Made by a program: the position numbers and the translations under genes. A stretch of DNA of 38,895 nucleotides from a bacterium (GTDB lineage Bacteria; Patescibacteriota; Minisyncoccia; Moranbacterales; UBA1568): NCBI GenBank assembly GCA_021821305.1, contig JAKACP010000001.1:707526-746420 (forward strand). Reading direction: 5' to 3'. Below, piece by piece: positions 6,934 through 30,186 of the stretch (position 1 is its first letter; the number at the start of each line of letters is the position of its first letter). A model generated the notes under the pieces. The model was given only the letters and a program-made list of their open reading frames with translations. It was not told where the DNA came from and did no database searches.

Positions 6934-6991
6934 TTGACAATCCTCCCGAAGCCGGGCTATGCTCTCCCCTACTTGTTCATTACAATGGAGG
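6934..6991 (+). promoter_or_regulatory. sigma70 promoter, boxA-like motif and SD upstream of tmk
   Basis: TTGACA 6934-6939, 18 nt, TATGCT 6958-6963, GTTCATTACAA 6975-6985, GGAGG 6987-6991. Confidence 0.65.
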
Positions 6992-6998
6992 AAACATC

Positions 6999-7691
6999 AT
7001 GAAAACGAGACTCACCCCATTCATCGCGATCGAAGGCATGGACGGCTCCGGAAAATCGACGCTTGTCCGTCGGCTTCAGGAACGGCTCTCGCTCATGTCG
7101 GATCACCGCTACGTCTTCACCCGCGAACCGGGAGGAACGCCGGCCGGAGAAGCTATCCGGAACATCCTGCTCGACGGGAATCTCTCCGGAAACGCGAGCG
7201 GCAAGACGCAGCTGCTCGGTTTTTTCTACGCTCGCTCGCATCACCTGGAAATGATCGGGGGAAAACGGAAAGCAGGATTCACCGTCATTTCCGACCGTTT
7301 CGACGGAAGTACGTTCGCCTATCAGGTACACGCGCAGACCGCCGACGGCAACGAGCGCGAGGAGCTCGACGACCTGTTTTGGACACTCCGGAACAACATC
7401 GTGTACGGCGAGAACGCACCGACACTCTATCTCTATCTCGACCTTCCGCCAAAAACCGCGTACGCCCGCAGGGATGCCGACTCGTCGCAGGCGAAGAATC
7501 ACTACGACACGATGCCGCTCGCTTTCTACGAGCGACAGCATGCCGGGTACGATGACTTCCTTTCGGAAATCGAGCGCCACGGCGGATCGGAGGTCGCACG
7601 GATCGACGCCTCGCAATCCCCCGACGAGGTCTTCGAAGACGCCTTCCAGGCCATCCTCGAACACATCCGGTCACGCTTGATTCTTCCATGA
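6999..7691 (+). CDS. tmk: Thymidylate kinase
   Basis: FIAIEGMDGSGKST P-loop, FTREPGGT, VISDRFDGSTFAYQ, RIDASQSPDEV. Confidence 0.93.
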   Translation: MKTRLTPFIAIEGMDGSGKSTLVRRLQERLSLMSDHRYVFTREPGGTPAGEAIRNILLDGNLSGNASGKTQLLGFFYARSHHLEMIGGKRKAGFTVISDRFDGSTFAYQVHAQTADGNEREELDDLFWTLRNNIVYGENAPTLYLYLDLPPKTAYARRDADSSQAKNHYDTMPLAFYERQHAGYDDFLSEIERHGGSEVARIDASQSPDEVFEDAFQAILEHIRSRLILP

Positions 7692-7697
7692 AAGCCG

Positions 7698-7731
7698 CCG
7701 CTCCCTGCAAACGCACGGAGCGGTTTTTTTT
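7698..7731 (+). terminator. Intrinsic terminator of tmk
   Basis: CCGCTCC...GGAGCGG followed by T8. Confidence 0.75.
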
Positions 7732-7748
7732 GTTTGCCCGGGAAAAGT

Positions 7749-7777
7749 AAAACGCCGCACAATTTCTTGTGCGGCGT
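7749..7777 (-). terminator. Intrinsic terminator of the 7811-8101 gene
   Basis: ACGCCGCACAA/TTGTGCGGCGT stem with an A tract on the left. Confidence 0.7.
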
Positions 7778-7810
7778 CGTCGTTCCGCGGGACGTACCCG
7801 CGCCGGCCGA

Positions 7811-8101
7811 TCAGGCGGGAATCAACTCGTCGAGGAGTCGCCGGCAGGCCCTGGCTTCGGACATGGTCATCGCGGTCGTCGCATCGTAATTGCGGGTATC
7901 GCCCATCAGGATCATCGTCTTGTCTTCCTTGATGGCCAAAAAGGGTGACTTGAGCACCTGACCGCCGATTTTCCCATGGATCGCGTACATCTTGAATCCC
8001 TTGGTGGGAATGACCTGTGGAGATCCGGCGATCTTCACCGTCTTCGGCATCTCGTTTAATGCCATGGCTTCGATACGGAGTGTATCCGACTTCTTATTCA
8101 T
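7811..8101 (-). CDS. Hypothetical protein, 96 aa
   Basis: Has its own promoter (TTGACA-17-TAGAGT, 8207-8179), GGAGG SD and terminator. No family recognised. Confidence 0.7.
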   Translation of the reverse strand: MNKKSDTLRIEAMALNEMPKTVKIAGSPQVIPTKGFKMYAIHGKIGGQVLKSPFLAIKEDKTMILMGDTRNYDATTAMTMSEARACRRLLDELIPA

Positions 8102-8203
8102 CAGTATTGCCTCCTGTAAAAAAGAACGAATCCCGTCGCCGCATGACGATGGGGCCAGTCGATTGACTGACGAAGGATACTCTACGATATATCGCGTACC
8201 CTG

Positions 8204-8974: not shown

Positions 8975-8984
8975 AGGATCGAAG

Positions 8985-9537: not shown

Positions 9538-10461
9538 TCAGCGGATTTTCCGCGGGATGACTTCGAAGGAGAGATGCTCCTGGTCCTTTCTCGTGAACGG
9601 ACGCGGATAGAGGTCCGCGCCGCGGAACGGAAGCGTCTCTCCCTGATATTCGAAGAATTCGTCGAAGAGATCGACGAACCGTTCGAACCGATCGGCGCTT
9701 CCGGTAGGACTCGTCTCGAGGAGAGCGGAGAGCACGGGGAGGTATTTCCCTCCGATGAGCTTCCGCGCGACGAGCCACGCGAGGAAGTGATCCGGGACCC
9801 GGCCCTCCTCGTACCAATCGCGTATCTCGCGTGCTTCTCCGAAATCGGTCGGCCAGAAGATCGTCGAATCGCGCGCCGCTTCGCGCATCCCGTCCGAATA
9901 CGCCCACAGCTTGCGGTTCACGTCCCGGGAGACGAGCCATTCGGACGCCTTCCGCCGCTCCAGATCCGCGAGGAGTATTTGCAGGAGAAGTGCCCGATCG
10001 CGGAGCGAGACCGAAAACGTGATACCCCTGCGGCGCGGAATCTCCTTTTCCCAGACGAGACCGGATTTCCTCCACCGCGGAAAGTACATGGTGACCCGCC
10101 GCGGATCCTTTCTCCACCGCCGCATGCGCTCGTGGGCGATCGCGACGATCCCGTCCACGAGATGCGGCCAGAGAGCTCGCAACCGGGTACCGAGGAGCCG
10201 GTTCCCGCGGAACGTCGGATAATCCTTGTAGGGATATTCCCGCCGCATCCCGATCATCGAGACGAGCTCGAGCCCGTGCGACCCGATCTCCCAGACGACG
10301 ATCGATTCCTTTTTCCCGTTCGGGATTTCCTTGGCGACACCCGTCTCCCGTCCGAATCGGACCGGATACGAATGCTCGAGGATGGGATGCCCTCTCCCGT
10401 CGAGGAGGAAGGTCTGCCGGTACGGCAGGATCTCTCCTTGGTCGAACAATTCCTTCTGCAT
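9538..10461 (-). CDS. Hypothetical protein, 307 aa
   Basis: Promoter TTGAAC-17-TAGAGT (10523-10495), GTTCTTTG, GGAGG SD, terminator at ~9504-9535. No family recognised. Confidence 0.7.
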   Translation of the reverse strand: MQKELFDQGEILPYRQTFLLDGRGHPILEHSYPVRFGRETGVAKEIPNGKKESIVVWEIGSHGLELVSMIGMRREYPYKDYPTFRGNRLLGTRLRALWPHLVDGIVAIAHERMRRWRKDPRRVTMYFPRWRKSGLVWEKEIPRRRGITFSVSLRDRALLLQILLADLERRKASEWLVSRDVNRKLWAYSDGMREAARDSTIFWPTDFGEAREIRDWYEEGRVPDHFLAWLVARKLIGGKYLPVLSALLETSPTGSADRFERFVDLFDEFFEYQGETLPFRGADLYPRPFTRKDQEHLSFEVIPRKIR

Positions 10462-10541
10462 GATGGATTCCTCCGTGACAAAGAACAGCCCGATACTCTA
10501 TCACGCCGCGCCCCACGGTTCAAGCAGCCCGCTCTCGGGAC

Positions 10542-10574: not shown

Positions 10575-10596
10575 TTCGTCCGAACCGCCACGGGAG

Positions 10597-11061
10597 TTAT
10601 CCCGCGGAAGGAACGCGGATCAGGCGGAACCGCCTCGCGAGACGATCGTGCCATTCCTCGCAATGGCGATCCCACAGCACATCGAGACTCGGTTTATAGC
10701 CGTGCTTCTTGGTCCACTCTTTCGCATGTTCGGAAGCTATGAGGAGAAACGCGAACGCTCCCCAGGCTTCCGGCGACACGGCCTTCTGCAGACCGCAGGC
10801 CTCCAAGGAAAAATGTTCCGGACCGCCCGACTTGAGCCAGTCCTCTTCCCTCCGCTCGAGCGGACAGTCGACGACGGACTTGCAGCGCAGGCAGGCTTCG
10901 TGGATTTCCTGGTTCTGTTTTTCGTACAGGGCGATGAGGCTGCAGACTTCGGCCATGGTGCCCGATGACTTGATGGATGCCAGCCACTCCTCCGCCGCCG
11001 ACGGATTCATTTCTTTGAAAAGACCGAGAAGCCGGTCGAACTCAGCACATTCCTGTTCCAT
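10597..11061 (-). CDS. Hypothetical Cys-containing protein, 154 aa
   Basis: Start MEQEC after GGAGGGG. Promoter TTGACA-17-AAGAAT (11121-11093). CLRC..C cluster. Own terminator. Confidence 0.7.
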   Translation of the reverse strand: MEQECAEFDRLLGLFKEMNPSAAEEWLASIKSSGTMAEVCSLIALYEKQNQEIHEACLRCKSVVDCPLERREEDWLKSGGPEHFSLEACGLQKAVSPEAWGAFAFLLIASEHAKEWTKKHGYKPSLDVLWDRHCEEWHDRLARRFRLIRVPSAG

Positions 11062-11203
11062 GATCCCCTCCGTATAAGAAGAACATGTCGACATTCTTCT
11101 CCTTTGCACCTCGGTTGTCAAGGACGCCGATTTTCGCGAAAAAACCGCGCGAATAGCGTTGCCGATAAGCGGATATGATTTGTCAGACGTTGATCCGTTC
11201 AGA

Positions 11204-13443: not shown

Positions 13444-13555
13444 TCAGGGCCTTGCAGAGAACCGCGGCGGACGCAAGGACGGAATGGAAAAAATTCCATC
13501 GTCAACTGTAGTACAGGGTACGGCACCTTCACAACCCGTTTCAGAGGAGACCATC

Positions 13556-14095
13556 ATGGCCAAGAAACCCCGTCGCACCGTCCCCGTACCCGCCTCGCTC
13601 GCCGAAGCCAACCACTCCCTCTTCCGCCTCGGTGCCATCGACCGCGCGGTCGCCGCCATCGAAAGCGGGCTCGAGGAAGAGATCGCCCGGCTTCGCAAGG
13701 AAGCCGAAGAAAAAAGCGCTCCCTTGCTCGCGGAACACGCCGATCTCGCGACCGGCCTCGAGGTCTTCGCCCGGGCCAACCGCGAGACGCTCCTCGCACG
13801 CGACAGGAAGTCCGTCCGGACCTCGGCCGGCACCTTCGGCTGGCGCGTCACTCCGTACAAGGTGGAGTTCCTGCGCGGCGCCGACAAGGTCCTCGCCGCG
13901 ATCAAGAAACTCAAGCTCAAGAAATATATCCGCGTCACGGAGTCGATCGACAAAAAAGCCCTGCTCAAGGACCGCCCCGTCATCGCCGGCGTGAAATACG
14001 CACGGCGCGAGGAATTCTTCTATGCAGTCTCCTCGGAGACCACGACGGATCCGGATGCGCCGGCCGATGCCGCCCTATTCGCCAAAACCGCCTAA
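13556..14095 (+). CDS. Mu Gam-like host-nuclease inhibitor (DNA end-binding) protein
   Basis: Long N-terminal coiled coil, then FARANRETLL..RKSVRTSAGTFGWR.TP, YIRVTESIDKKALL, IAGVKY..REEFFY. SD GAGGAG at 13544-13549. Confidence 0.85.
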   Translation: MAKKPRRTVPVPASLAEANHSLFRLGAIDRAVAAIESGLEEEIARLRKEAEEKSAPLLAEHADLATGLEVFARANRETLLARDRKSVRTSAGTFGWRVTPYKVEFLRGADKVLAAIKKLKLKKYIRVTESIDKKALLKDRPVIAGVKYARREEFFYAVSSETTTDPDAPADAALFAKTA

Positions 14096-14109
14096 GGGTC
14101 TCCCCTCCG

Positions 14110-14141
14110 CCCGTCAGTCATCGTACTGCCGGGCTTTTTTT
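14110..14141 (+). terminator. Intrinsic terminator of the gam-like gene
   Basis: CCCGTCAGT...ACTGCCGGG followed by CTTTTTTT. Confidence 0.65.
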
Positions 14142-14386
14142 CATATCTTCCCGATCAGTTCGAGCTTCTGGGCGCGGGAGAGCCGCTTGATACGGGATTC
14201 CTCGCGGGACGCCTCCGAACGATTCTCGAACGCTCGCGAGAAAACGAGCGAGACCGGTCTTCGCCCCCGCGTATATTTCGCCCCGAGCGTCGAACCGTTG
14301 TGCTCGAGAATCCGACGCTCCACATCGGTCGTGATGCCCACGTACAGCGTCTTGTCCGCACATTGGAGGATATAGAGGTGATACAT
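14141..14386 (-). CDS. GIY-YIG nuclease (UPF0213, YhbQ/YazA-like)
   Basis: YHLYILQCADKTLYVGITTDVERRILEHN..GAKYTRGRRPV..EASREESRIKRLSR. Confidence 0.92.
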   Translation of the reverse strand: MYHLYILQCADKTLYVGITTDVERRILEHNGSTLGAKYTRGRRPVSLVFSRAFENRSEASREESRIKRLSRAQKLELIGKI

Positions 14387-14495
14387 GGTTCCATTCTACT
14401 CCCAAGTCGTCAAATCAGGATATGGTTACGTAAGTGCCAAAAAGGTACTTGCCTGCCCGCCTGTGGAGGAACGCCTTTTCTTCTCTTCGCCGAAA

Positions 14496-15932
14496 TTATG
14501 CCTGCAATATTTTCTTTAATCGATTCACCAAAAACTCGTCAAATCTATCCGGATCCTCCTTGCGCGTTCTAATCATCTCAATGAGATCGCCACCACCAAT
14601 TGGGAATATTAAGCACCTCTGAGCGAGAAAGTGTCTACGTGCTCTTTCGATATCTTTGTCCTGAACTTCTTTCCTTGATATTAGAAACACCAACTCTCTA
14701 CCATTTGCAAGAGTGTACGCCCTCCCCTGGTTGAATTCGTCGTTAGAAATTCTGCTACTATCATAGTTTTTCGCTTCAATAACCAGAAGTCCAGATTTGA
14801 TTTGCTGGTTTCTTATCATTTTGAAAAGTGGCGTGTTTGCACCATTTCCGAAGACAACGTCGTATCGAAAAATACCATCTACCGAACAATCCTCTCGTGT
14901 CCCGCTCGTTAGATGGCCATCATACAGCGCAGTAAAAATCTTTCTGAGAAACTCGGAAAATCTGCTAGCACCGCCTTTTCCAGAAGGGATTTTTTTAAGC
15001 TCCTCAATATAAGAACTCCAGTTTTCCTTTCCTTTTTTTCTTTTCTTACGCCGCTCATCATCAAAGATATTTGGGTTTCCAACATAATCAGCTACCAGCT
15101 CTGGTCTATTTTTGGCAATTTTTCTGATTGCAGCCGTCTTCTTACCGAAACGACTCTTCAAGTCATTTTCTACTTGCTTCAGAGAAACTTTCGGCTTCTT
15201 ACCTATTGATCTAGTTGTTATTATTCGCTGCTCCTCCTCGTGCTTTAAAAAATATCTCAAATAATTCTGATAAAATCCTTCCGGACTGAAAATTGGGATC
15301 TTCCGAACTAGGTGCTTGGGCACAAAAATCCTCGGTTCGCAAAATCCGTCTTCTTCGAAGTAGGGAAGCCTCACTCTTGGTATGGGGCGCCACGTAAATG
15401 AAAAGGGGTCTAATGCACGCTCAATTTGAATATCAGTCGTTTTAAGCCCGTAAAGTTTTACCTGTTCCTCTGTATATTGGATTAGATACGAAATACCAAA
15501 ATTCGCCACCAAATCTGAAAGCGTATCCGGACCAACTTTAGGAATAACGATCGACATCTTGGCAAGAGCCTCTACTCCGACTTCATGCACAGTTTCGTTA
15601 TCGAAGATTTCATTCTTTATTGCAATCGCTTTTTCCTCCGCCCCTCCCCTTCCATTTTTCCCATTTTTACAGTAACCGAGAGCTATATGGCTAACTTCCG
15701 GAAATTCAAGCGCTGCTTCAAGCTCATCTGAAGTTATCGCGCCCTCTCTATAAGAATTTAGGTAACGATTAAAGTATTCGTAAATAAGAGCCTGCACCTT
15801 GTGCCATCTGGTTTCTGGTGAATGATACAGGAGATTCAAATCAATATAAACAGGAGTGTCGTCCTTGCTGGGAAAAACGAAATCGACTTCATGCGGTTTA
15901 TACTCCTTTATCAATTCGCCGAGAGTAATCAT
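14496..15932 (-). CDS. Uncharacterised protein with C-terminal PD-(D/E)XK (restriction endonuclease-like) domain
   Basis: C-terminal FSEFLRKIF..RYDVVF..LVIEAKNY..EFNQGRAY. The N-terminal ~300 aa (DTPVYID, LGY..GxG, VGPDTLSD, YTEEQ) is not assigned to a named family. Confidence 0.7.
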   Translation of the reverse strand: MITLGELIKEYKPHEVDFVFPSKDDTPVYIDLNLLYHSPETRWHKVQALIYEYFNRYLNSYREGAITSDELEAALEFPEVSHIALGYCKNGKNGRGGAEEKAIAIKNEIFDNETVHEVGVEALAKMSIVIPKVGPDTLSDLVANFGISYLIQYTEEQVKLYGLKTTDIQIERALDPFSFTWRPIPRVRLPYFEEDGFCEPRIFVPKHLVRKIPIFSPEGFYQNYLRYFLKHEEEQRIITTRSIGKKPKVSLKQVENDLKSRFGKKTAAIRKIAKNRPELVADYVGNPNIFDDERRKKRKKGKENWSSYIEELKKIPSGKGGASRFSEFLRKIFTALYDGHLTSGTREDCSVDGIFRYDVVFGNGANTPLFKMIRNQQIKSGLLVIEAKNYDSSRISNDEFNQGRAYTLANGRELVFLISRKEVQDKDIERARRHFLAQRCLIFPIGGGDLIEMIRTRKEDPDRFDEFLVNRLKKILQA

Positions 15933-15945
15933 TTACATGGAAAAA

Positions 15946-16461
15946 TCAGATTAACCCTAATTCTTTAGCCCTGTAATATACCGCCTGCCCGGAAACTCTG
16001 AAGATAGATGCGATCCTGGCTTTCTTAAAGTCGATATCTTCCCTTATCGCATTCCATCTTTCAATAAAAATCTCCTCAGGCATCAGAAATGCCGCGGAAA
16101 AATGATCGCAAAACCTTTCTTCTCCGCTTGCGGAGTATATCTCCCCCTCGGAAAAACCAAAGGCTTTTTCGGAATTTCTGATAATATGTGCAATTTCATG
16201 ACACAACGTGAAGCGCTGCCGATACTCATAATCTCGACCGTTGACGAAAATCCTATACTCCCCGATTCCCGGATCAAAATACTCGAGACCAGAAACAGTA
16301 AACTCATCGGAATTCTTGAACGAAACAGTTATTCTTATGCCGAAATTTTCTTCTGTCCATCGAATCAGCGACAAGATGGATGGCATCGTGTCCCCGAGAC
16401 TGGAATATATGGCGCCTGCTGTTTGTTCGGCATCATTATTTATTTTTTCAAATCCATCCAT
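15946..16461 (-). CDS. ImmA/IrrE family metallo-endopeptidase
   Basis: RQRFTLCHEIAHI (HExxH), EERFCDHFSAAFLMP, C-terminal HTH IASIFRVSGQAVYYR. Confidence 0.92.
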   Translation of the reverse strand: MDGFEKINNDAEQTAGAIYSSLGDTMPSILSLIRWTEENFGIRITVSFKNSDEFTVSGLEYFDPGIGEYRIFVNGRDYEYRQRFTLCHEIAHIIRNSEKAFGFSEGEIYSASGEERFCDHFSAAFLMPEEIFIERWNAIREDIDFKKARIASIFRVSGQAVYYRAKELGLI

Positions 16462-16464
16462 ATG

Positions 16465-16791: not shown

Positions 16792-16795
16792 ACTG

Positions 16796-16842
16796 GTAAA
16801 ATAAGTTTACTTTAGATTACACGAGGCGCAGAAGGTTGTCAA
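16796..16842 (-). promoter_or_regulatory. Promoter and candidate operator of the XRE-peptidase-nuclease operon
   Basis: TTGACA (16842-16837), 17 nt, TAATCT. Inverted repeat GTAAA-N5-TTTAC (16796-16810) overlaps AAGT-N2-ACTT just downstream of the -10. Confidence 0.55.
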
Positions 16843-16998
16843 GAATGCTTTATTATAAGCAAAAAAGGAGCTACAGGCTCCTTTTCCCATTCAAGCTTCC
16901 AAAGATTCTCACTATGTATCCGCCGGATTTCTTATTCACATCGCTCTCACATATGCGGATAACTTTCCAGCTTTCTTTTTTCAATTACCTATTCCTCT

Positions 16999-19317: not shown

Positions 19318-21010
19318 AGATTTCTTGGTAGATATCCAAAATCTTCTGCGGAATGGGGTCCAAACGTACACCGGACCACATGGAAAAATCATCCTTATCC
19401 AAACCAAGCGGATCGAGCGTGAAGCAGTAAAGCAGCTTCTCCCCATCCAACTTGTCCAACTCTTTCTTGAGACTCTTCAACGCGGCGCGTTCGATGGAAT
19501 AATATACCGCCATGAGCCGATCGTTCTGTCGGAAAATCCGATAGTCGTCGCTGCTTGCCAACTCGTCGAATATCCCTTCCCGCAGGCACAGCATCTCCGT
19601 GCACTCCCGCGCGACACGGATCTTAAGCTCGTCCCGGTTGACACTCTTTTTCACGAACTCGGTCTTGAAATACTTAAGATTGCCGCCGAGACCTTCTACC
19701 TTCGAGCCCTTTTCCGTCTTATAACCAGCCATCACATTTTTTACTCGAGGATAACAAACATCTACACAAATCCCATTTTCATTATTAGTAGTCAGAATAA
19801 ATGACCTATGGCCACCATCCTTATTCAATTCAAGAATCGCGTGGCCAGTCGTGCCGGAGCCAGCAAAGAAATCCAATACCACTGCATCCTTCTTATGTTG
19901 AAGAAGAAGTTCAAGTGGTTTAATAACGGCATGCAAAGACTTCGGGTAATCAAAGGCCTTCCTTTTTCCGAGAATTTTTTGCAATAAAACCGTCCCATGG
20001 GAAGATGCATCGAACATTGGATCAATCCAGATTGTCTTCGGCTTCCTACCATCTTTTATCCTGTCCTTCATTAAAACGGTATACCCGTTTTTTGTCTTCT
20101 TTATAACCATATCGCCACGCGCCACAGCAAGCATAAGCGAAGGGCGAGTCTGGCGCCAGACTCGTTTTTTCCCCGAGCTATCTATTGGAATAATTTCAAC
20201 ACAGCCGGGTATATTTTCTATGCCAATATAACCATTTTCCTCATTGTAGTAAATCGGATAATGCGAATTCGGACGCTCTTCAGGAGTAGAAAGGCCGCCA
20301 CTTCGTCGAAATGGGAGCAGGCGATATCTTGATATATCATCTTCAAACTTGAAAACCGCCGCCTGTTCATCGGTAAGCGGCATATTTTTCAACTCGGCCG
20401 TTTCTGCATTTTTTGCATAAAAAAGAATGTACTCGTGAGAAGTAGCGAAAAACTTATTCGTGGTGCGACCCCGCGGATTTATTTCGATTGCCAGGATGCC
20501 GACCCTGTTCTGTTCCCCAAAAATCTCATCTAACAATAAACCTATTGGAAACAACTCATAGTCATCAATAGTCAACACAAAAAAACCATCCTCTTTAAGA
20601 AGGGCGCGAGCTAAACGCAACCGTTTACTCATGAATGAGAGCCACTTGCTATGGCGAAATGAGTCATCAAGATCGACGTAATCATTGTTGTAACGCCAGC
20701 TTTTGTTTCCGGTATTGTATGGAGGATCGGCATAAATAACATCTATCTTTCCAGCGTGGGTATAATTCAAAACCGATAAGGCGTGATAATTATCACCCTC
20801 AATCAAAATGTTCGTCGGCTTGCTCGAATCAGTTGCAATTTCCTTGCCCTTGATTTCTTTCAAAACCGGCAGTGCATTTTCTGCCTCCTTTTCGAATTGC
20901 TCTTTCGTCCGTTCCTCATCCCAAATCAACCCGTATTTTTTTCGGGATTCCAGTTTTTCAATAGCCTTAAGCAAGTCCTCTTTTTCAAGTTTTGAATAAT
21001 CTTTTGCCAT
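19307..21010 (-). CDS. mod: Type III R-M methyltransferase, Mod subunit (beta-class N6-adenine)
   Basis: KKYGLIW, NILIEGDN, IYADPPYNTG, FRHSKWLSFM, FDYPKS, VLDFFAGSGTTGHA. Confidence 0.95.
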   Translation of the reverse strand: MAKDYSKLEKEDLLKAIEKLESRKKYGLIWDEERTKEQFEKEAENALPVLKEIKGKEIATDSSKPTNILIEGDNYHALSVLNYTHAGKIDVIYADPPYNTGNKSWRYNNDYVDLDDSFRHSKWLSFMSKRLRLARALLKEDGFFVLTIDDYELFPIGLLLDEIFGEQNRVGILAIEINPRGRTTNKFFATSHEYILFYAKNAETAELKNMPLTDEQAAVFKFEDDISRYRLLPFRRSGGLSTPEERPNSHYPIYYNEENGYIGIENIPGCVEIIPIDSSGKKRVWRQTRPSLMLAVARGDMVIKKTKNGYTVLMKDRIKDGRKPKTIWIDPMFDASSHGTVLLQKILGKRKAFDYPKSLHAVIKPLELLLQHKKDAVVLDFFAGSGTTGHAILELNKDGGHRSFILTTNNENGICVDVCYPRVKNVMAGYKTEKGSKVEGLGGNLKYFKTEFVKKSVNRDELKIRVARECTEMLCLREGIFDELASSDDYRIFRQNDRLMAVYYSIERAALKSLKKELDKLDGEKLLYCFTLDPLGLDKDDFSMWSGVRLDPIPQKILDIYQEIYEY

Positions 21011-21014
21011 ATCT

Positions 21015-21185
21015 TTATTTCTTCCAATCCTTTATCATCACCCCACCGTGAACCCGTTTCACGACCACCTTCTGTTTTTCCTTCCAGCCAAGCTCACGAA
21101 CCAATTCGATCGGGATCGTCAGCCCGATGGACTTTCCGCCCAATTTGGTGAGTTTTCTGATATTCTTCTCGTTTTCCTTTTTCAT
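21015..21185 (-). CDS. AbrB/MazE/SpoVT-like DNA-binding micro-protein, 56 aa
   Basis: Below the ORF-track cutoff. Manual translation MKKENEKNIRKLTKLGGKSIGLTIPIELVRELGWKEKQKVVVKRVHGGVMIKDWKK. Stop lies 4 nt before the mod ATG. Confidence 0.8.
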   Translation of the reverse strand: MKKENEKNIRKLTKLGGKSIGLTIPIELVRELGWKEKQKVVVKRVHGGVMIKDWKK

Positions 21186-21207
21186 GACATCTCCATGTTA
21201 TTTCCAG

Positions 21208-21279
21208 CGCCCTGAGGAGGAGTCGAACCTCCGAATCCTCGATAGAAGCGAGGCGGTTTATCCATTAGCCTACCAGGGC
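21208..21279 (-). tRNA. tRNA-Arg(TCT)
   Basis: Acceptor stem GCCCTGG/TCAGGGC, D loop AATGGATA, anticodon arm CCTCG-CTTCTAT-CGAGG, T arm GGAGG-TTCGACT-CCTCC. CCA not encoded. Confidence 0.93.
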
Positions 21280-21428
21280 GAAACAGCACGGTTTTCCCGT
21301 ACGTCTTCCCTTCTCGGCTGTGTGGAGCTTCATCTGGCGCATAGCTCAAAACTACGTAATCGGTTACGTAACTCGTTATAGACATTCTCCCACGATAAAA
21401 CCCGCGTGTAAAGCGGGATTTTCGTTTC

Positions 21429-21953
21429 CTAGGCGGGAAATGTCGTGATGAATGCCGAGGGGTCCCTCCAGTACGATTTCTTGGTCCTGCCCTGCCCTTT
21501 CTTCCAGTACCCGGGGAGGATCGTGCCTTGCCACGGGCCGGTATAGATGGCGAAGTGGAGATGGGCTTCCCACCATCCGTTGTCCGGCGTATATCCCTCG
21601 CCGATCGTCCCGATGGCTTCCCCGAGCTCGACCGGGTCGCCCCGCTCCTTGATCCGGCGTCCGAGGTGCGCGTAGAGGGAGAAGAAGTTTTTCCCGGTCT
21701 CCGGATGCTTGTGCGCGATGATGACGATATTCCCCCAATTCCCCTTGTCCCCCGAACCCGGGTGGAGCGCGGAATAGACGACGCGGCCGCGGCCGGCGGC
21801 GCGGACCGGGGTGCCGGCCGGGGCATCGGCGTCTTCGCCGAGGTGAATGCCCCAAGAGACGCCGCCGTAGGAGCGCTCCTCGCCGAAGCGCGGCCCCGTC
21901 ACGACGTACGGATCCATGGGGAACACCAGTTGTCTCGCGATCGGATAGGCCAT
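21429..21953 (-). CDS. M23 family metallopeptidase
   Basis: IHLGED (HxxxD), SLYAHL, AHLHFAI (HxH). Confidence 0.92.
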   Translation of the reverse strand: MAYPIARQLVFPMDPYVVTGPRFGEERSYGGVSWGIHLGEDADAPAGTPVRAAGRGRVVYSALHPGSGDKGNWGNIVIIAHKHPETGKNFFSLYAHLGRRIKERGDPVELGEAIGTIGEGYTPDNGWWEAHLHFAIYTGPWQGTILPGYWKKGQGRTKKSYWRDPSAFITTFPA

Positions 21954-22051
21954 GCATCCAGTATACCAGAACGGCCGATATCTTCCCCGGATCGTCGAAA
22001 AAAAAACGGGGTTCCGTGTTCGGAATCCCGCGATGTCTCCATTGTGGAGCG

Positions 22052-22438
22052 TCAGTTGAGAAGGTGCGACCTTTGCCTGTCCGGGAAATACCTGTTGAGG
22101 AGGTCATGGATCCCTTCCACGTATTCCTCCTCGCTCGTGCCGGTGGATTCGCACAGGAGCAGTGCATCGATCCGCGCCTCGAGGTCGGACTCGAATTCGA
22201 GCATGCCTCGCAAGAAAAGATCGATATCCTCGGGGAGCCCGGACTCGCGGATCTCGAAGAGGAGTTTGTCGCGCTCCCGGTCGCCGATCAGGTCGTCGAA
22301 GTAATATTCGCTGACGACCGCCCGGGCGTCCTTCCGACAGAAGACGACATTCGACATCACGGCCCTTCCCAAATCGACATAGCCATGCCGGCCGCATTCG
22401 CCACAGACCGTGAAACGGACTTCGGAAACGGTACTCAT
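22052..22438 (-). CDS. Hypothetical protein, 128 aa, N-terminal CxxC..H..C
   Basis: Start MSTVSE after GGGAGGG. Promoter TCGACA-17-TACGGT. Terminator at 21998-22030. Confidence 0.7.
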   Translation of the reverse strand: MSTVSEVRFTVCGECGRHGYVDLGRAVMSNVVFCRKDARAVVSEYYFDDLIGDRERDKLLFEIRESGLPEDIDLFLRGMLEFESDLEARIDALLLCESTGTSEEEYVEGIHDLLNRYFPDRQRSHLLN

Positions 22439-22592
22439 ATCGCTACCCTCCCTTTCTCCAAAGAACGGAAACTCTTTTCCACGCCCCCACCGTATCACGG
22501 GAATATCCGCCTGTCGAGCGGTCGGACGGTTGACAGGGAGGGGAAACGAGTATATAAGTGATGCACCGTACTTTTCAATGAAAGGAAGCGAA

Positions 22593-23063
22593 ATGCCCCA
22601 CCACAGCGTCGTGACATGTACGCGCTACGAGCTATCACTCCTCATGGCCGAGGAACCCGGATTGCGGCATATCAAGGATCTCGCCCTCAGCGAACAGGTC
22701 GCCCGCTCGGAAGAACGGGTGGACGAGATCGCCATGGGGTGCCTCCAGTGGCTCGCCGCGGCGTTCACGCTCCCGAGGGGTGCCGAGCTCCTCATGTTCG
22801 AGGGACGGGTGGAATCATTCCTCCGTCTCGTCATCCTCGACACCGAGTTCTTCAAGCATCTCTACCGGAGATATGCCGACTATCCCATCCGCTACAAGCC
22901 GCTTACGATAAGCCGGGAAAACATCGGACCGTTCCGAGGATACATCGATTGGACGATCGAATACCTCCATGGCACCTTCGGGGACGCGCTCCATCCGGAG
23001 CTCGCCAAGTGGGAGCATGCTCACCACATCAAACTGCTCCCTACCGGCATCGCCAGCCGCTAG
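22593..23063 (+). CDS. Hypothetical protein, 156 aa, distantly resembling the GRDP/DUF1399-like family
   Basis: Promoter TTGACA-17-TATAAG, SD AAAGGA, terminator 23067-23112. VESFLRLVILDTEFF and WTIEYLHGTFG...W patterns. Confidence 0.65.
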   Translation: MPHHSVVTCTRYELSLLMAEEPGLRHIKDLALSEQVARSEERVDEIAMGCLQWLAAAFTLPRGAELLMFEGRVESFLRLVILDTEFFKHLYRRYADYPIRYKPLTISRENIGPFRGYIDWTIEYLHGTFGDALHPELAKWEHAHHIKLLPTGIASR

Positions 23064-23178: not shown

Positions 23179-23514
23179 TCACCGGCTTCGGAAGAAATCC
23201 CCTTCCGGCCTCACGGTCGCCAGCGCGCCGGATGTCCGGTAGTAGGCCAGGAAATCCACCGTCCCCGCCTCGCGGCCAGAGAGGAGCGCATCGAGGAGAT
23301 CCCGGTGCCCGATATTCCAGGCGAAGAAATCCTCGCCGCCCGAGAGCGTCCGCATCCACCGGTAGAGCGTGGCCGGAAGCCCGCTTTGCGAGGCGGCGTC
23401 CTTTACGGCTTCTCCCAACCGATGCTCCTGTCCCTCCGGGTCGCCCAAGACCATCTTGGGCCGGAGCATGACGACGATACACATGCCGCACCACGTGATA
23501 TTCATCTGTTGCAT
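23179..23514 (-). CDS. Hypothetical protein, 111 aa
   Basis: Promoter TTGTCA-17-TACTCT, SD AAAGGAGG, terminator ~23130-23160. Confidence 0.65.
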   Translation of the reverse strand: MQQMNITWCGMCIVVMLRPKMVLGDPEGQEHRLGEAVKDAASQSGLPATLYRWMRTLSGGEDFFAWNIGHRDLLDALLSGREAGTVDFLAYYRTSGALATVRPEGDFFRSR

Positions 23515-23643
23515 CTCTCGGCCCTCCTTTCGTCAGGGTAAAGAACACGAAATCGCCCCGAGAGTACCACGTCGGAGGCCGTCTGACAAGAAAAACGAAA
23601 ACCCGCCACAGAGGGCGGGTTTCCCATGCTGTCGGACACGTCG

Positions 23644-24852
23644 CTACTTCACCGGGATCTCCTTGGCCGGAAGCGTGCCATCCGTGCCTTCGAGCGGAAC
23701 AGTCGGGGCTATCGTCCCGAGCTGTGCCATGACCGTGTCGCAGTCGCGTCCGGCTTCATGCTCGTTCCAGATCGCGGCACCGGCACCGCCATAAGGATAC
23801 TCCGTGGTTCCTTCGGTCGGACCATCCGCGGCCAGAGAGAAGGTCGCGCAGAGCTCGAATTCCCCGACACGACCGGCACCTTCCATGCGCGACGGCGTGA
23901 CGACACGGTAGCCGTAGTCCTCCTTCGTTTCCGGATCCTGCATGAATTCGGCGCAGTAGGCGTACTGGCTCGATTTTCGGAGGTCGCTGAACGATACGGG
24001 AAGCTGGCCGAGATCCCTGGCATATCCCTCCACACAACTCGAGAGCGCCGCGAGGCCGTTGGCCCGTTCCGCATCGAATGTCCGCTGGCGCGTCGTCTCG
24101 GGTGAACCGCCCGCGAAGAATCCGAACACGATACCGAGCACGACCAGCGCCGTGACCACGGTGGCGAAGTCGCGGAATACCTTCTTCGGGATGTCTTTCT
24201 TGTACTGGATCTTCCTACGTTCGAGAAAGTAGAATCCGAAGATACCGCCGGCGATCGCGAATATGATAAACGCCTTGAGAAAGAACCGTGCACTGATCTC
24301 GCCTTGGAGAAAGGTGAAGACGACGGTGATGAGGTCGCCCACGACGGTCACCGACGCTATGAGCAAGACGAGATAGGTGAGCCATCGGGAAAGCTTGGAC
24401 TCGATCCTGCCCTCGTCCTCGCGGAACGTGCGAAACCAGATCCGCATCGCGATGTAGTAGAGCGGATATCCGATGAGAAGCGCCGCTATGGCATAGTGGA
24501 TGGCGCTCGTCGATGCCGCCTCGCCGTACCAGTTCATCGCGTCGAGCGGATCCGGGAACGCCTTGTTGATGACCTGGAAATAGAGCGTGCCGAGCGCGGT
24601 CGCCACGATACCGAGCAGGATGAACGAGAAGAAGTTGACCACGATATCGGCCGCGGAGGACCGGAGCGAAAGCGTCGGTCGGATGCCCTCGTGCGGTACG
24701 GGGGCACCGAGCGCGATCACGCCGTCGCGATATGCCGCGTCCGCCTCCTCTTCCGACCAGCCGACGGCCAAAAGTTCCTCTCTGAGCTCCGCCTTGGAAA
24801 TGCCTGTCCGTATACGTCCTGCCACGTACTGCGAAAGCGTATTCGTATCCAT
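23644..24852 (-). CDS. DUF5671-like membrane protein with C-terminal extracytoplasmic Cys-containing domain
   Basis: AIAALLIGYPLY...SKLSRWLTYLVLLIASVTVVGDLI...GEISARFFLK; DPETKEDYGY, FELCATF. Terminator 23591-23622. Confidence 0.8.
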   Translation of the reverse strand: MDTNTLSQYVAGRIRTGISKAELREELLAVGWSEEEADAAYRDGVIALGAPVPHEGIRPTLSLRSSAADIVVNFFSFILLGIVATALGTLYFQVINKAFPDPLDAMNWYGEAASTSAIHYAIAALLIGYPLYYIAMRIWFRTFREDEGRIESKLSRWLTYLVLLIASVTVVGDLITVVFTFLQGEISARFFLKAFIIFAIAGGIFGFYFLERRKIQYKKDIPKKVFRDFATVVTALVVLGIVFGFFAGGSPETTRQRTFDAERANGLAALSSCVEGYARDLGQLPVSFSDLRKSSQYAYCAEFMQDPETKEDYGYRVVTPSRMEGAGRVGEFELCATFSLAADGPTEGTTEYPYGGAGAAIWNEHEAGRDCDTVMAQLGTIAPTVPLEGTDGTLPAKEIPVK

Positions 24853-26837: not shown

Positions 26838-27032
26838 CTAAAGGTCCATGGGCTCATGGAGCAGGTGAAGCGGGACTTCTCGCGCTTTCCGGAGTTCGGC
26901 GATGACTCTGCCGATACCCCGGCACGTGTCGGCGATCTCCTTCTGCCCTTCGGGTGATTTCAGCCATTTCTCGAGCCTTTCCCTCTCTTCCGGAGCGATT
27001 CCGGCCCTTATCGGTTCCTCGGTGGTCGGCAT
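26838..27032 (-). CDS. Small hypothetical protein, 64 aa
   Basis: SD GAGGAGGT, promoter TTGCCA-16-TATAGT, start MPTTEE. Confidence 0.65.
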   Translation of the reverse strand: MPTTEEPIRAGIAPEERERLEKWLKSPEGQKEIADTCRGIGRVIAELRKAREVPLHLLHEPMDL

Positions 27033-27160
27033 GGTCGATACCTCCTCTCGTAATGTACTGCGGTCACTATACAACTTCCACCGAAAATGGCAACTGGAGC
27101 CTCTCTCAAAAAATCAATGAAAAAAGCCCGTCGACGTGTCGTCGAGGGCTTTCTGGCTGC

Positions 27161-27304: not shown

Positions 27305-27425
27305 AAAACATTCCATCCGTAATTCCTATTCCATTGTAAAAAAACAAAACCCCCTCGCGAGGGTACTTCGATGCCGTGAGTCAGGACGACTCACGGCCAT
27401 ATTCTCGCACGTTTTCCGGCATCTG

Positions 27426-28652
27426 TCAATCCCCGATGAAATCGACGTACTTCCTCCCCCGGAGCGCCTCGGGAAGGTAGTCCTGCTTCGCCTCCTCCTG
27501 GTCCTTGAAATCGGGGGTATATTTGTAGCCTTTGCCGTAGCCGATCTCCTTCATGAGTTTGGTGGGGGCGTTGCGCAGGTGGATCGGGACGGGTTCGTTC
27601 GGGAACTGCCGGACGTCCTCCTTGACGTGGCCGTAGCCGACGTAGAGCGCGTTGGATTTCTTGGATTTGGCGAGGTAGACGACCGCCTGCGCGAGCGCGA
27701 GCTCGCACTCGGGCATGCCGATCATATGGCACGCCTGGTGCGCGGCGACCGCCTGCGGAAGCGCGAAGGAATTGGCAAGCCCCACGTCCTCGGACGCGAA
27801 CCGCACGAGCCGACGCGCCACGTAGAGCGGATCCTCGCCAGCCTCGAGCATACGCCCGAGCCAGTAGAGCGCCGCATCGGCATCGCCGCCGCGCATGGAT
27901 TTGTGGAGCGCGGAGATGATGTCGTAGTGCCATTCGCCGCCCTTGTCGTAGAGGAGGTGCGAGCGGTTCACGATCTTTTCGACGAGTTCGGGCGTGATAT
28001 GTCGGGCGCTCGCCGCGCACGCCTCGAGGATATTGAGGGCGTTGCGCGCGTCGCCGCCCGAGACATCCGCGATGAAGGCGAGCACGCCGTCTTCCACCTC
28101 GATCGCGGCATCCTTCAATCCCCGCTCATCGGAAAGCGCCCGCGACAGGACCTCGACGACCTCGTCGGTCGAAAGTTTCCCCAGCACCAACACGCGCATC
28201 CGCGAGAGGAGCGCGGCGTTGACCTCGAAGCTCGGGTTCTCGGTGGTCGCGCCGATGAGCGTCACGAGACCGTGTTCGACATGCGGCAGGAGCGCGTCCT
28301 GCTGGGCCTTGTTCCACCGGTGGATCTCGTCGATGAAGAGGATGGTCTTCTTGTCTGCCTTGCGGTTCTCCTCGGCCGCGGCGATCACCTTTCGGAGCTC
28401 GGCGACGCCGCTCCCGACCGCGGAAAGCTGGACGAATTCCGACTTCGTCTCCCGAGCGATGAGGAGCGCGAGCGTCGTCTTGCCACAGCCGGGCGGCCCC
28501 CAGAAGAGGAGCGACGGCACGCGATCCGCCGCGATCGCATCGCGCAGGAACGATCCCTCGCCGAGGATCTTTTCCTGCCCGAACACCTCGGAGAGTTTTT
28601 CCGGGCGCATCCGATCCGCGAGCGGGGTGGTATCTTTTTTTCTTGTATTCAT
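27426..28652 (-). CDS. rarA: Replication-associated recombination protein A (MgsA)
   Basis: PLADRMRP, WGPPGCGKTT, FIDEIHRWNKAQQD, GATTENPSF, ISALHKSMRG, ASEDVGLA, VPIHLRNAPT. Confidence 0.96.
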   Translation of the reverse strand: MNTRKKDTTPLADRMRPEKLSEVFGQEKILGEGSFLRDAIAADRVPSLLFWGPPGCGKTTLALLIARETKSEFVQLSAVGSGVAELRKVIAAAEENRKADKKTILFIDEIHRWNKAQQDALLPHVEHGLVTLIGATTENPSFEVNAALLSRMRVLVLGKLSTDEVVEVLSRALSDERGLKDAAIEVEDGVLAFIADVSGGDARNALNILEACAASARHITPELVEKIVNRSHLLYDKGGEWHYDIISALHKSMRGGDADAALYWLGRMLEAGEDPLYVARRLVRFASEDVGLANSFALPQAVAAHQACHMIGMPECELALAQAVVYLAKSKKSNALYVGYGHVKEDVRQFPNEPVPIHLRNAPTKLMKEIGYGKGYKYTPDFKDQEEAKQDYLPEALRGRKYVDFIGD

Positions 28653-28927
28653 AGGATGCTGAACTCAACTTCGTCGGAAACGGGCGGGATCGCCTCGTGC
28701 GTGAGATCATCCACACGGGCCGCTCCCGACCCATGTCCCGCCCATGCGAGGAATGTCTGTACGGAGGATTCCTCTCCCTGCACTTCGATATCCACACTTC
28801 CATCCTGCTCATTGCGCACGAAGCCGGTGAGACCGAGCCGCCGGGCTTCCCGTCGGGCGTTCGCGCGGAAGAACACACCCTGGACCCGACCTTGAATCTT
28901 CATACGGACACGGATAATATCAATCAT
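28649..28927 (-). CDS. acyP: Acylphosphatase
   Basis: GRVQGVFFR, GFVRNEQDGSV, ARVD. Confidence 0.93.
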   Translation of the reverse strand: MIDIIRVRMKIQGRVQGVFFRANARREARRLGLTGFVRNEQDGSVDIEVQGEESSVQTFLAWAGHGSGAARVDDLTHEAIPPVSDEVEFSIL

Positions 28928-29062
28928 AAAGCACAGGACACAGAGTCACAAAATTCCAAACGAAACCCAAAACACAGATCCCAAAAACACAAGGCTTGAA
29001 TTCGTTTGTGCTTCGGACTTCGTCCTTTGTTTGGCTTTTTGTGTTTTGAACTTTTGTGTTTT
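28928..29062. repeat. Heptamer-periodic inverted-repeat element, copy 1
   Basis: A/C-rich arm (AAAGCAC AGGACAC ... AAAATTCCAAAC) and T/G-rich arm (TTGGCTTTTTGTGTTTTGAAC TTTTGTGTTTT). Similar to 31405-31536. Confidence 0.75.
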
Positions 29063-29872
29063 CTAAAGCGTAAGCTTGAGTCCGACCGGACAGTGGTCCG
29101 ATCCCATGACCTCGGGGAGGATGAACGCGTCCGTGACGGCGTCCCGGAGCGCCTCGCTCACGAACACGTAGTCGATACGCCAGCCGACGTTGCGTGCCCG
29201 GGAGTTCGCCCAGTGCGACCACCAGGAATAGTGCCCGTTGCCTTCGTGGAACATCCGGAAGGTATCGACGAACCCGGCTTCGACGATCCGGTCGATCCCC
29301 TCGCGCTCCTCGGCCGTGTAGCCGTGCTTGCCCTCGTTCTCCTTTGGCTTCGCGAGATCGTCGGGACCGTGCGCGACATTGAGATCGCCGCAGAAGATGA
29401 CCGGTTTTTTCTTCTCGAGCTCCTTCATATACGCGAGGAACGCCGGATCCCAATGTTCGTGCCGGAGATCGAGCCGGGAGAGGTCCTCCTTGGAGTTGGG
29501 GGTATAGACCGTGACGACGAAGAATCCGGCGAATTCCGCCGCGATCACCCTCCCCTCGCTCTCGGAATTCCGATCCGCGCCGTCGATGAGGTGGTAGCGC
29601 TTCGCGATATGCTCGGGGAATCCGTTCACGACCGCGATCGGCTTCTCCTTGGTGAAGATGGCCGTCCCCGAGTAGCCTTTCTTCTCCGCCGAGTTCCAGT
29701 ACTCCTCGTAGTCGGGAAGGTCGATCTCCGCCTGTCCGCGCTCGGCCTTGGTTTCCTGAAGACAGATGATATCCGGCTCGTACTGCGCGACGAACGGGGC
29801 GAACACGTCCTTGCGTACCACCGCGCGGATGCCGTTGACGTTCCAGGAAATGAGGGTGAGATCCTTCTTCAT
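29063..29872 (-). CDS. xth: Exodeoxyribonuclease III / AP endonuclease
   Basis: ISWNVNGIRA, CLQETK, GYSGTA, EGRVI, VYTPN, CGDLNVAH, GWRIDY, GSDHCPV. Confidence 0.96.
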   Translation of the reverse strand: MKKDLTLISWNVNGIRAVVRKDVFAPFVAQYEPDIICLQETKAERGQAEIDLPDYEEYWNSAEKKGYSGTAIFTKEKPIAVVNGFPEHIAKRYHLIDGADRNSESEGRVIAAEFAGFFVVTVYTPNSKEDLSRLDLRHEHWDPAFLAYMKELEKKKPVIFCGDLNVAHGPDDLAKPKENEGKHGYTAEEREGIDRIVEAGFVDTFRMFHEGNGHYSWWSHWANSRARNVGWRIDYVFVSEALRDAVTDAFILPEVMGSDHCPVGLKLTL

Positions 29873-29962
29873 AGGTTCATTGTACGATACCACCCGAAGG
29901 AAAGGAAGGCAAAAAGAAAGTCGCTTTTGTTTCCAAAAGCGACTTTAGACGGAAGCCTCCCA

Positions 29963-30115
29963 TCAGGAGAAAGCGTGAACAAGGACGGCCAGGACAGCCA
30001 GGACAGCCACTACGATGGCTATCCACATCATGAGCCCACCCCATCCCATCGGCAAGCGTGGCATATCCCACTCGGGGTCGAAATCTTCAATGGGGAAAAT
30101 CGGTTCGCGTTTCAT
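29963..30115 (-). CDS. Small single-TM membrane protein, 50 aa
   Basis: Manual translation MKREPIFPIEDFDPEWDMPRLPMGWGGLMMWIAIVVAVLAVLAVLVHAFS. SD AAGGAGG, promoter TTGTCA-17-TTTAGT. Confidence 0.7.
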   Translation of the reverse strand: MKREPIFPIEDFDPEWDMPRLPMGWGGLMMWIAIVVAVLAVLAVLVHAFS

Positions 30116-30186
30116 TTCAACCTCCTTGGGGAAAGAAAAGAACTGTTTTCACTAAACCACGTCGTCAAAAAATTGACAACGTAATA

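Follow-up and report, generated by a model that had tools for sequence, protein, structure and literature searches.

The stretch of DNA analyzed here, referred to as the window, comprises 38,895 nucleotides (nt) and corresponds to C1:707526-746420 of genome G000, which consists of 832,874 bases in 3 contigs, has a guanine-cytosine (GC) content of 58% and is rated 100% complete. The gene content of this genome is of the Patescibacteria/candidate-phyla-radiation type, with DUF5671, PilM/PilN and lamin-tail-domain proteins and with unlinked 16S and 23S rRNA genes. Ten genes of the window share a leader in which a motif of 12-13 nt, TGTTCTTTTACAA, is followed by a strong Shine-Dalgarno (SD) sequence. 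The same arrangement recurs across the genome, and we favor, with modest confidence, the reading that the motif is the boxA of this lineage, placed in front of protein-coding genes. The features of the ten leaders and their genes are listed below in window coordinates; motif scores come from a genome-derived 13-column matrix, for which 10 bits is the match threshold.

6934..6963, forward strand: tmk promoter TTGACA-18-TATGCT, from the promoter scan and matrix
6975..6986, forward strand: tmk leader motif GTTCATTACAAT, 13.4 bits; SD GGAGG at 6987, ATG at 6999
6999..7691, forward strand: thymidylate kinase gene (tmk), 230 amino acids
8116..8127, reverse strand: orf96 leader motif GTTCTTTTTTAC, 12.1 bits; small hairpin before it at 8149-8133; SD AGGAGG at 8115
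7811..8101, reverse strand: orf96, no Pfam or NCBIfam family; terminator-like hairpin at 7778-7751
10475..10486, reverse strand: orf307 leader motif GTTCTTTGTCAC, 13.8 bits, 8 nt after the -10 TAGAGT; SD GGAGG at 10474
9538..10461, reverse strand: orf307, no family; terminator-like hairpin at 9535-9512
11073..11084, reverse strand: weak orf154 leader motif GTTCTTCTTATA, 8.8 bits, 8 nt after the -10 of TTGACA-17-AAGAAT (11121-11093)
10597..11061, reverse strand: orf154, no family
13523..13534, forward strand: gam leader motif GCACCTTCACAA, 10.5 bits; SD AGGAG at 13545
13556..14095, forward strand: Mu Gam-like gene (gam), 179 amino acids
22455..22466, reverse strand: weak orf128 leader motif GTTCTTTGGAGA, 8.3 bits; SD GGAGG at 22451
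22052..22438, reverse strand: orf128, no family; weak terminator-like hairpin at 22025-22012
22568..22579, forward strand: orf156 leader motif GTACTTTTCAAT, 13.4 bits, 9 nt after the -10 of TTGACA-17-TATAAG (22530-22558); SD AAGGA at 22582
22593..23063, forward strand: orf156, no family, genus-restricted
23535..23546, reverse strand: orf111 leader motif GTTCTTTACCCT, 11.8 bits, 14 nt after the -10 of TTGTCA-17-TACTCT; SD AAGGAGG at 23529
23179..23514, reverse strand: orf111, no family; terminator-like hairpin at 23161-23138
27047..27058, reverse strand: weak orf64 leader motif GTACATTACGAG, 5.2 bits, 7 nt after the -10 of TTGCCA-16-TATAGT (27093-27066); SD AGGAGG at 27046
26838..27032, reverse strand: orf64, no family; terminator-like hairpin at 26839-26812
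30132..30143, reverse strand: orf50 leader motif GTTCTTTTCTTT, 11.4 bits, 7 nt after the -10 of TTGTCA-17-TTTAGT (30179-30151); SD AAGGAGG at 30127
30214-30186, reverse strand: second orf50 promoter, TTTACA-17-TATAAT
29963..30115, reverse strand: orf50, no family; terminator-like hairpin at 29946-29917

All ten motif copies listed in an earlier note on this DNA were recovered at their positions and on their strands, and the motif proved to be longer than described there. Seven of the ten reach 10 bits, the copies of orf154, orf128 and orf64 being the weaker ones. As that note had stated, a strong SD precedes every one of the ten genes; it is at least 5 nt long in each case and spaced 5-8 nt, and hardly any other gene of the window has a strong SD. 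A -35/-10 pair with a spacing of 16-18 nt had been ascribed to nine of the ten. Eight score at least 7, those of gam and orf96 being weak near the motif, and a stricter scan recovers only five of the ten and places the orf96 promoter approximately 50 nt upstream. In line with the claim that most of the genes have their own terminator, terminator-like hairpins (consensus matches only) are found within approximately 40 nt of the stop codon in six of the ten genes, one of them weak. The description of the genes as mostly orphan and lineage-specific is borne out as well. Specifically, only tmk and gam belong to a Pfam family, and the other eight are also without an NCBIfam family; orf307 has no homologue in 30 relatives, and a protein atlas search gave no usable match for it, while orf156 is found only in two of four same-genus genomes, at 43-45% protein identity. 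That the conserved genes of the window have neither SD nor motif holds for its Pfam-positive genes. orf128 and orf156 are divergent, and their 154-nt spacer (window 22438-22593) contains both promoters, with motif and SD in each leader.

Genes of the whole genome were called by a custom caller that scored in-frame hexamers, start codon and SD. It called 823 genes covering 88% of the genome, so that counts depending on these calls are approximate, and it overlooks some small open reading frames (ORFs), several with motif and SD among them. A strong SD (AGGAG or better) precedes 105 of the 823 genes, any 4-mer SD precedes 172, and the 3' end of the 16S gene, CACCTCCTTT, retains the anti-SD. The SD is absent from conserved genes, including those for ribosomal proteins, and some of these genes look leaderless; the SD-less conserved genes often have an extended -10 (TGGTATAAT or TGGTATACT) 7-40 nt 5' of the ATG, examples in the window being 21429-21953, 23644-24852 and 34185-35279.

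An unrestricted de novo search of all 577 upstream regions returned T-runs only, and the search was therefore confined to the 45 nt before the SD. Expectation maximization (EM) on these 45 nt from the 82 strong-SD genes whose intergenic space measures 45 nt or more converged from many seeds on TGTTCTTTTACAA, with approximately 70% of the 82 leaders estimated to be carriers. The RNA consensus is UGUUCUUUUACAA, the box RNA also being written GUUCUUUUACAA, and the best-kept columns are G1 (0.85), C4 (0.79), T6 (0.96) and T7 (0.93). Four-fold cross-validation yielded the same consensus in 4/4 folds, and held-out leaders reached 10 bits in 26/82 cases on the sense strand and in 1/82 on the antisense strand. 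The predicted genome-wide enrichment is evident with the full matrix, which matches 40/82 strong-SD genes in sense and 4/82 in antisense, a somewhat optimistic result given that the matrix was trained on the same 82 genes. Co-occurrence with the SD, also predicted, is equally apparent. The matrix matches 6/53 weak-SD genes in sense (7 in antisense) and 21/377 SD-less genes in sense against 14/377 in antisense, that is, without enrichment, and the difference between strong-SD and SD-less genes is highly significant (Fisher p = 9e-20), shuffles matching at about 2.5-3%. The motif is not palindromic and is strictly strand-specific.

Counts made without gene calls agree with this picture. Without the matrix, 25 of the 127 genomic GTTCTTT words lead into GGAG and ATG, against a median of 3 over 42 permutations of the word, the next-best words being overlapping or T-run words. 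Composites of matrix match, SD, start codon and ORF number 72 in the genome, compared with a mean of 18.75 (range 10-32) for 20 column-shuffled matrices and 41 for the reversed matrix; the class therefore comprises roughly 45-70 leaders, part of them scoring through composition. The pattern is far beyond chance across the genome.

A promoter score of at least 7 was obtained in 29/45 motif-and-SD leaders as against 10/300 random 75-mers (consensus matches only). The motif G lies 7-15 nt downstream of the predicted -10 in 22 of these 29 leaders, corresponding to approximately +1 to +9, and 23-46 nt from it in the other seven. On the downstream side, the motif-to-SD gap is -1 to 15 nt in 39/45 leaders, and the distance from the motif G to the ATG is 22-39 nt in 38/45. 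The leaders show no extra structure, with a mean z of +0.18 for folding energy relative to shuffles, which fits a single-stranded protein site. A hairpin in which the motif sequesters the SD was considered and rejected, as at least half of the SD is paired with the motif in only 15/45 leaders and folding is no better than in shuffles. A small hairpin tends to stand immediately before those motifs that are separated from the -10 by more than 15 nt (four cases, by eye: window 8133-8149 and 22467-22480, C1:537300-537332 and C1:651885-651905), an order of hairpin and motif that echoes the 16S leader.

The genes behind these leaders are short, with a median of 150 amino acids compared with 274 in SD-less motif-less genes (p = 5e-6). 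They less often have a downstream operon partner (20% versus 40%) and more often receive a crude terminator call (33% versus 11%). The expected link to orphan status was also recovered: a Pfam match (E <= 1e-5) is present in 16/44 motif-and-SD genes and in 32/44 length-matched SD-less controls (p = 0.0012), the controls including ribosomal proteins S6, S10, S15, S18, L1, L19 and L20, and EF-P. Annotated carriers comprise two thymidylate-kinase paralogues, NT5C, an NTP transferase, a PhoH2-like PIN-PhoH protein, Mu Gam and an SLT-LysM protein. Additionally, the gene of an RpoD/RpoS-like sigma factor of 289 amino acids with a TTG start (C1:111967-112836, reverse strand) has GTTTCTTTCACAA and an SD in its leader, and this sigma factor may itself be in the motif class. 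Foreign origin was rejected, the GC content of 0.572 in motif-and-SD genes versus 0.589 giving no clear signal, as was a membrane or secreted class, the transmembrane-like fraction (31% versus 42%) showing no enrichment. Two neighboring genes at C1:515717 and C1:516438 (reverse strand), of 161 and 172 amino acids, have identical 60-nt leaders with CGAACCTTTCAAT (9.4 bits), and by their sequence look like a recent tandem cassette duplication. GTTCTTT with a strong SD and ATG also stands before ORFs that were uncalled or started elsewhere, at C1:164295, 216642, 415699 and 669501. The caller overlooked several motif-and-SD ORFs, and the motif is useful in annotation, where it may flag real small genes and true start codons.

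The arrangement is also found in relatives. Four same-genus genomes retain G[TC]TCATT[AC]ACAA at -24/-25 in their tmk leaders despite altered spacers, and protein identity is as low as 58% for one of them; TATTCATT is found in one copy. Among these orthologues the distance from -10 to motif changes from 11 to 7 nt, while that from motif to ATG stays at -25/-24. The orf156 leaders of three genomes (G000, G002 and G004) keep TTGACA-17-TATAA[GA], a distance of 8-9 nt, GTACTTT and the SD. The gam leader carries GCACCTTCACAA in G000 and GTTCATTCACAA in G002. On a wider scale, GTTCTTT-SD-ATG composites number 330 in 60 other genomes of the order compared with 115 for the reversed pattern, the real count exceeding the control in 49/60, and G000 represents the extreme of the order with 25 versus 2. 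In G017, a genome of another genus with 48% GC, of which 400,000 of 1,111,322 bases were covered, the motif is found in 4/15 strong-SD and 3/197 SD-less genes (p = 5e-4).

The motif matches the published boxA consensus, as had been pointed out before, and G1, C4, T6 and T7 are its best-kept positions. The gamma-proteobacterial consensus is given as GYTCTTTAANA, with C4 and T6 functionally critical (PMC5725501), and the E. coli and B. subtilis consensus sequences are given as UGCUCUUUAACA and AUGAUCUUUGAAA, respectively (PMC13753749). Comparison with the rRNA leaders of the same genome revealed boxA-like boxes in both. The 16S and 23S genes lie approximately 460 kb apart (C1:352507-354000 and C1:816742-819679), each with its own promoter, and both promoters are preceded by ggccgacTTGACAgctt. 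The 16S leader contains, in order, TTGACA-17-TATACT, a hairpin, GCTTCTTTTTTAC, GCACATTTACAA and the strand of a leader-trailer stem that pairs 3' of 16S. The top matrix match of this leader is GCACATTTACAA (11.3 bits), located between the 5' hairpin and the leader-trailer stem, whereas the T-rich GCTTCTTTTTTAC, directly after the hairpin, is a second candidate box. Similarly, GAACATTGACAA (10.9 bits) is the top matrix match of the 23S leader. The rRNA boxes are also written GCACAUUUACAA and GAACAUUGACAA. Boxes of the form G[AC]AC..TT.A.AA are among the top 3 matches in 9/18 16S leaders of relatives. The rRNA-type variants GCAC, GAAC and GTAC are found among mRNA leaders too, and rRNA-type and mRNA-type variants are linked by the gam pair, GCACCTTCACAA and GTTCATTCACAA.

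A further box lies in front of nusB (C1:667264-667827, reverse strand), a gene without SD. Here, AGTTCTTTTCCTC starts at -14 (C1:667828-667841) and abuts the start codon; it directly follows a terminator-like hairpin of the upstream 69-amino-acid gene, and no clear promoter is found. A nusB box of at least 10 bits starting at -26 to -12 is present in 10 of the 29 genomes of the order that have enough upstream sequence, representing 8 genera, against an expectation, derived from the same loci, of 0.016 per search interval; these genomes are related and not independent, and the flanks are unalike. Several other genomes have weaker look-alikes at the same place, and four genomes of other families have boxes of the GCTC..AGACAA type there (by eye). 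The nusB box suggests a link between motif and NusB, the strongest indirect one found here, and by analogy its pattern resembles the Nus-factor autoregulation described in PMC5725501. The genome encodes NusB, which aligns to solved NusB structures (1EYV, E = 7e-19), together with NusA, NusG and S10; it also encodes a four-domain S1 protein and a cold-shock-domain protein (window 6571-6768).

Taken together, the motif itself, its strand specificity, SD coupling, position and conservation, the boxes of the rRNA and nusB leaders and the presence of the factors favor the boxA reading. We judge it somewhat probable that the motif represents the boxA of this lineage and marks an expanded NusB-S10 regulon of approximately 45-70 SD-led leaders, beyond the 16S and 23S leaders. 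That NusB-S10 binds the box, that the box is transcribed and which way the effect goes are inferences. Several observations weigh against this reading. The rRNA boxes are unlike the mRNA consensus at positions 2-3 (CA or AA instead of TT), and because a score of about 11 bits is met 0.72 times per kb of intergenic strand, a chance match per rRNA leader is not negligible. The S10 gene has no box. In this genome, rated 100% complete, SuhB (PF00459, the inositol monophosphatase family) has no match; for Rho, PF07497 has no match and the best TIGR00767 hit reaches 45.7 bits against a cut-off of 509. The unbiased held-out match rate is 32%, lower than that of the full matrix, and the reversed matrix still yields its 41 composites. 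The narrow distance from -10 to motif (7-15 nt in 22/29 leaders) would also suit a DNA element of one promoter class. Composites exceed the control only 1.6-fold (291 versus 179) when 80 genomes of the phylum are taken together, a few lineages being strong (13 versus 0), and a de novo search on the 15 G017 leaders did not recover the motif. The Nus-dependent regulon suggested in the earlier note gains from the enrichment, the boxA likeness and the nusB box in 8 genera, and of the factors it named nusB and nusE (S10) are present, as are nusA and nusG, but suhB, like rho, was not found in the genome. With neither of these two found, suhB-type regulation as in E. coli, which depends on the entire complex and finishes with termination by Rho, cannot apply here unchanged.

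We propose that the leader takes the form of promoter, 1-9 nt, boxA, 0-15 nt, strong SD, 5-8 nt and AUG, with the box at the extreme 5' end. In this model, boxA would be the single-stranded RNA site of the NusB-S10 (NusE) heterodimer, which would bind the box as the leader exits RNA polymerase, while NusA and NusG sit on the polymerase. The box is in contact with the SD or almost so (in nusB, with the start codon), and its occupation would therefore hinder access of the 30S subunit; we favor such control of 30S access over other roles. Antitermination seems pointless, since these short monocistronic genes come with terminators of their own and no Rho was found that would need to be counteracted. 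Translation of the motif genes would then track the free NusB-S10 pool, that is, the state of ribosome assembly, and nusB, whose box abuts the start codon, may be autoregulated. As to the effect, the examples of E. coli suhB, the Citrobacter koseri parE-like gene and lambda N make repression seem slightly preferable to activation. In E. coli, simple occlusion is described as insufficient and the full complex as needed (PMC5725501); with SuhB not found here, the mechanism would have to be a variant. A more far-reaching version, to which we give somewhat less than even credence, is that NusB-S10 of this ultrasmall bacterium could have turned from a factor dedicated to rRNA into a global post-transcriptional regulator, with approximately 6-9% of genes under control of the free pool, SD-led initiation reserved for them and core genes SD-independent; the expression of accessory genes would in this way be coupled to ribosome assembly. 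On that tentative reading, the regulated set would consist almost exclusively of fast-evolving lineage-specific genes, plus the sigma factor and nucleotide-salvage enzymes.

Among the alternatives, the one that survives best, although we consider it unlikely, is an element of the 5' untranslated region that acts independently of Nus factors, either as the site of another RNA-binding protein (S1 or a cold-shock-domain protein) or as a standby site or enhancer, providing a second initiation route for accessory genes, comparable to the separate translation-initiation route raised in the earlier note. The motif adjoins the SD, with the gap of -1 to 15 nt in 39/45 leaders, and is almost restricted to SD-led genes; it is rich in pyrimidines and U and lacks structure, and both a four-domain S1 and a cold-shock-domain protein are encoded. 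S1 binds boxA RNA, and CspB prefers GTCTTT-type heptamers. Known U-rich S1-dependent enhancers and standby sites are unstructured pyrimidine-rich elements directly 5' of the SD. In contrast, the motif has a conserved G and C, well kept and unlike low-specificity A/U-rich S1 sites, and an ACAA tail, and boxes without an SD also occur in the rRNA leaders and, in 8 genera, directly in front of nusB. Pairing of the motif to 16S rRNA, as an enhancer might use, was rejected, since the best complementarity (10/12) is no better than that of shuffled motifs, which reach 10-11.

Improbable, and more so than an S1-type element, is a DNA or initiation-level element of one promoter class, located in the start region or initially transcribed and acting on promoter escape, sigma-dependent pausing or uridine triphosphate (UTP)-sensitive reiterative transcription at the T runs, or else serving as operator of a DNA-binding regulator. 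The clustering of the motif G at approximately +1 to +9 in 22/29 good promoters, the distance of 8-9 nt from -10 to motif that orf156 orthologues keep, and the nucleotide-related members of the class (two Tmk paralogues, NT5C and NTP transferase) all agree with such an element. However, among genes with equally good promoters the motif follows the -10 in 18/44 strong-SD genes and in only 4/155 SD-less genes (p = 2.5e-10), and it is therefore not a general promoter element. The distance to the -10 extends to 23-46 nt in 7/29 leaders, and among tmk orthologues it varies between 11 and 7 nt, in contrast to the nearly constant distance to the ATG. The rRNA-leader boxes lie far downstream of the promoter, the nusB box follows a terminator hairpin without a clear promoter, and the motif is non-palindromic and strictly strand-specific. 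UTP-sensitive reiterative transcription in particular was rejected, since the distance from the -10 varies and G, C and ACAA are conserved.

We regard as quite improbable a 5'-terminal stability or processing determinant of short monocistronic transcripts, for instance a site at which an RNase enters or a barrier to decay from the 5' end. The position of the motif at the extreme 5' end, the scarcity of operon partners (20% versus 40%) and the excess of terminator calls (33% versus 11%) would be in keeping with it, but it leaves the boxA-like consensus, the nusB box and the rRNA boxes unexplained, and no conserved structure was found in the leaders. Finally, an artefact of chance or composition, arising from T-rich intergenic DNA such as terminator tails or from duplicated leaders, to which the T-runs of the unrestricted search, the 41 reversed-matrix composites and the many matrix matches in a low-GC island of the window might point, has a negligible probability and is excluded by the antisense (4/82 and 1/82), shuffle (about 2.5%), word-permutation (25 versus a median of 3) and reversed-pattern (330 versus 115 in 60 relatives) controls, as well as by dissimilar flanks in 52 leaders, the sole identical pair (C1:515717/C1:516438) lying below threshold.

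The low-GC island spans window 14000-22000 (45-50% versus approximately 60%) and ends next to a tRNA gene (21208-21279, reverse strand). Its genes include GIY-YIG, an HTH_3 regulator, a ResIII helicase (772 amino acids), an N6_N4 DNA methylase (567 amino acids) and a MazE-like gene, and it is probably an integrated restriction-modification or mobile island. Separately, the leaders of the acylphosphatase and MiaB-like radical-SAM genes (window 28928-29020 and 31396-31470) are full of G/T-rich repeats with the words gtgctttgtg and tttggaattttgtg, an unexplained leader sequence common to both genes and distinct from the motif.

Read as boxA, the leaders can be compared with several known systems. 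The 5'-untranslated-region boxA of suhB in E. coli and Salmonella, as described by Baniulyte et al. 2017 (PMC5725501), likewise stands in an mRNA leader just upstream of the SD; a Nus-factor gene, here nusB, has its own box, and G1, C4 and T6-T7 are common to both. Unlike in this genome, where SuhB and Rho were not found, the E. coli system as described there involves the whole complex including SuhB, and Rho termination (PMC5725501). The same source reports 0-7 putative boxA sequences per gamma-proteobacterial genome and few regulatory targets per species, compared with approximately 45-70 leaders in 0.83 Mb here, but the counts are not strictly comparable because PMC5725501 used a stricter exact 11-mer. 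Other mRNAs for which it gives a boxA are the C. koseri ParE-like toxin gene and lambda N (via nutL), in both of which a leader boxA mediates Nus-dependent repression of a non-ribosomal gene of accessory or mobile character. Each case concerns one gene, and in lambda N and boxB are needed as well, whereas the boxes here occur genome-wide in one gene class. Occurrence of boxA at CRISPR arrays is mentioned in PMC13753749. With the rrn antitermination complex (NusA, NusB, NusE, NusG, S4 and SuhB) the genome shares similar boxes in the 16S and 23S leaders and the factors NusB, NusA, NusG and S10. The putative targets in this genome, however, are short translated mRNAs with their own terminators, on which an antitermination or RNA-folding chaperone role makes little sense, and the 16S and 23S genes are unlinked here. 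Phage moron cassettes consist of a gene with its own promoter and its own terminator. The units described here are similar in being autonomous arrangements of promoter, SD, ORF and terminator for family-less genes between conserved genes, but their GC content is near that of other genes (0.572 versus 0.589), they are scattered over the chromosome, and they have only the short box in common.

In the literature, no published report of boxA leaders in Patescibacteria or the Candidate Phyla Radiation was found, the titles listed by the searches being those of microbiome or environmental surveys without relation to Nus factors. Control of mRNAs by boxA is itself known; new here are the scale, the coupling to a minority SD-led class and the setting free of Rho and SuhB. 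As portrayed in PMC5725501, the boxA/Nus system is regarded as dedicated to rRNA, no more than a few mRNAs being targeted in any one species. A boxA-like box in about half of the strong-SD leaders would, if the boxA reading is true, alter that picture and make Nus action in the absence of Rho and SuhB accessible to experiment. It would also join two features of these genomes that are puzzling by themselves, the rarity of the SD on core genes and the many orphan genes bearing near-perfect expression signals. To our knowledge, hardly any regulatory element is known in candidate-phyla-radiation bacteria, and the motif would, if so interpreted correctly, be a first handle on their gene regulation.

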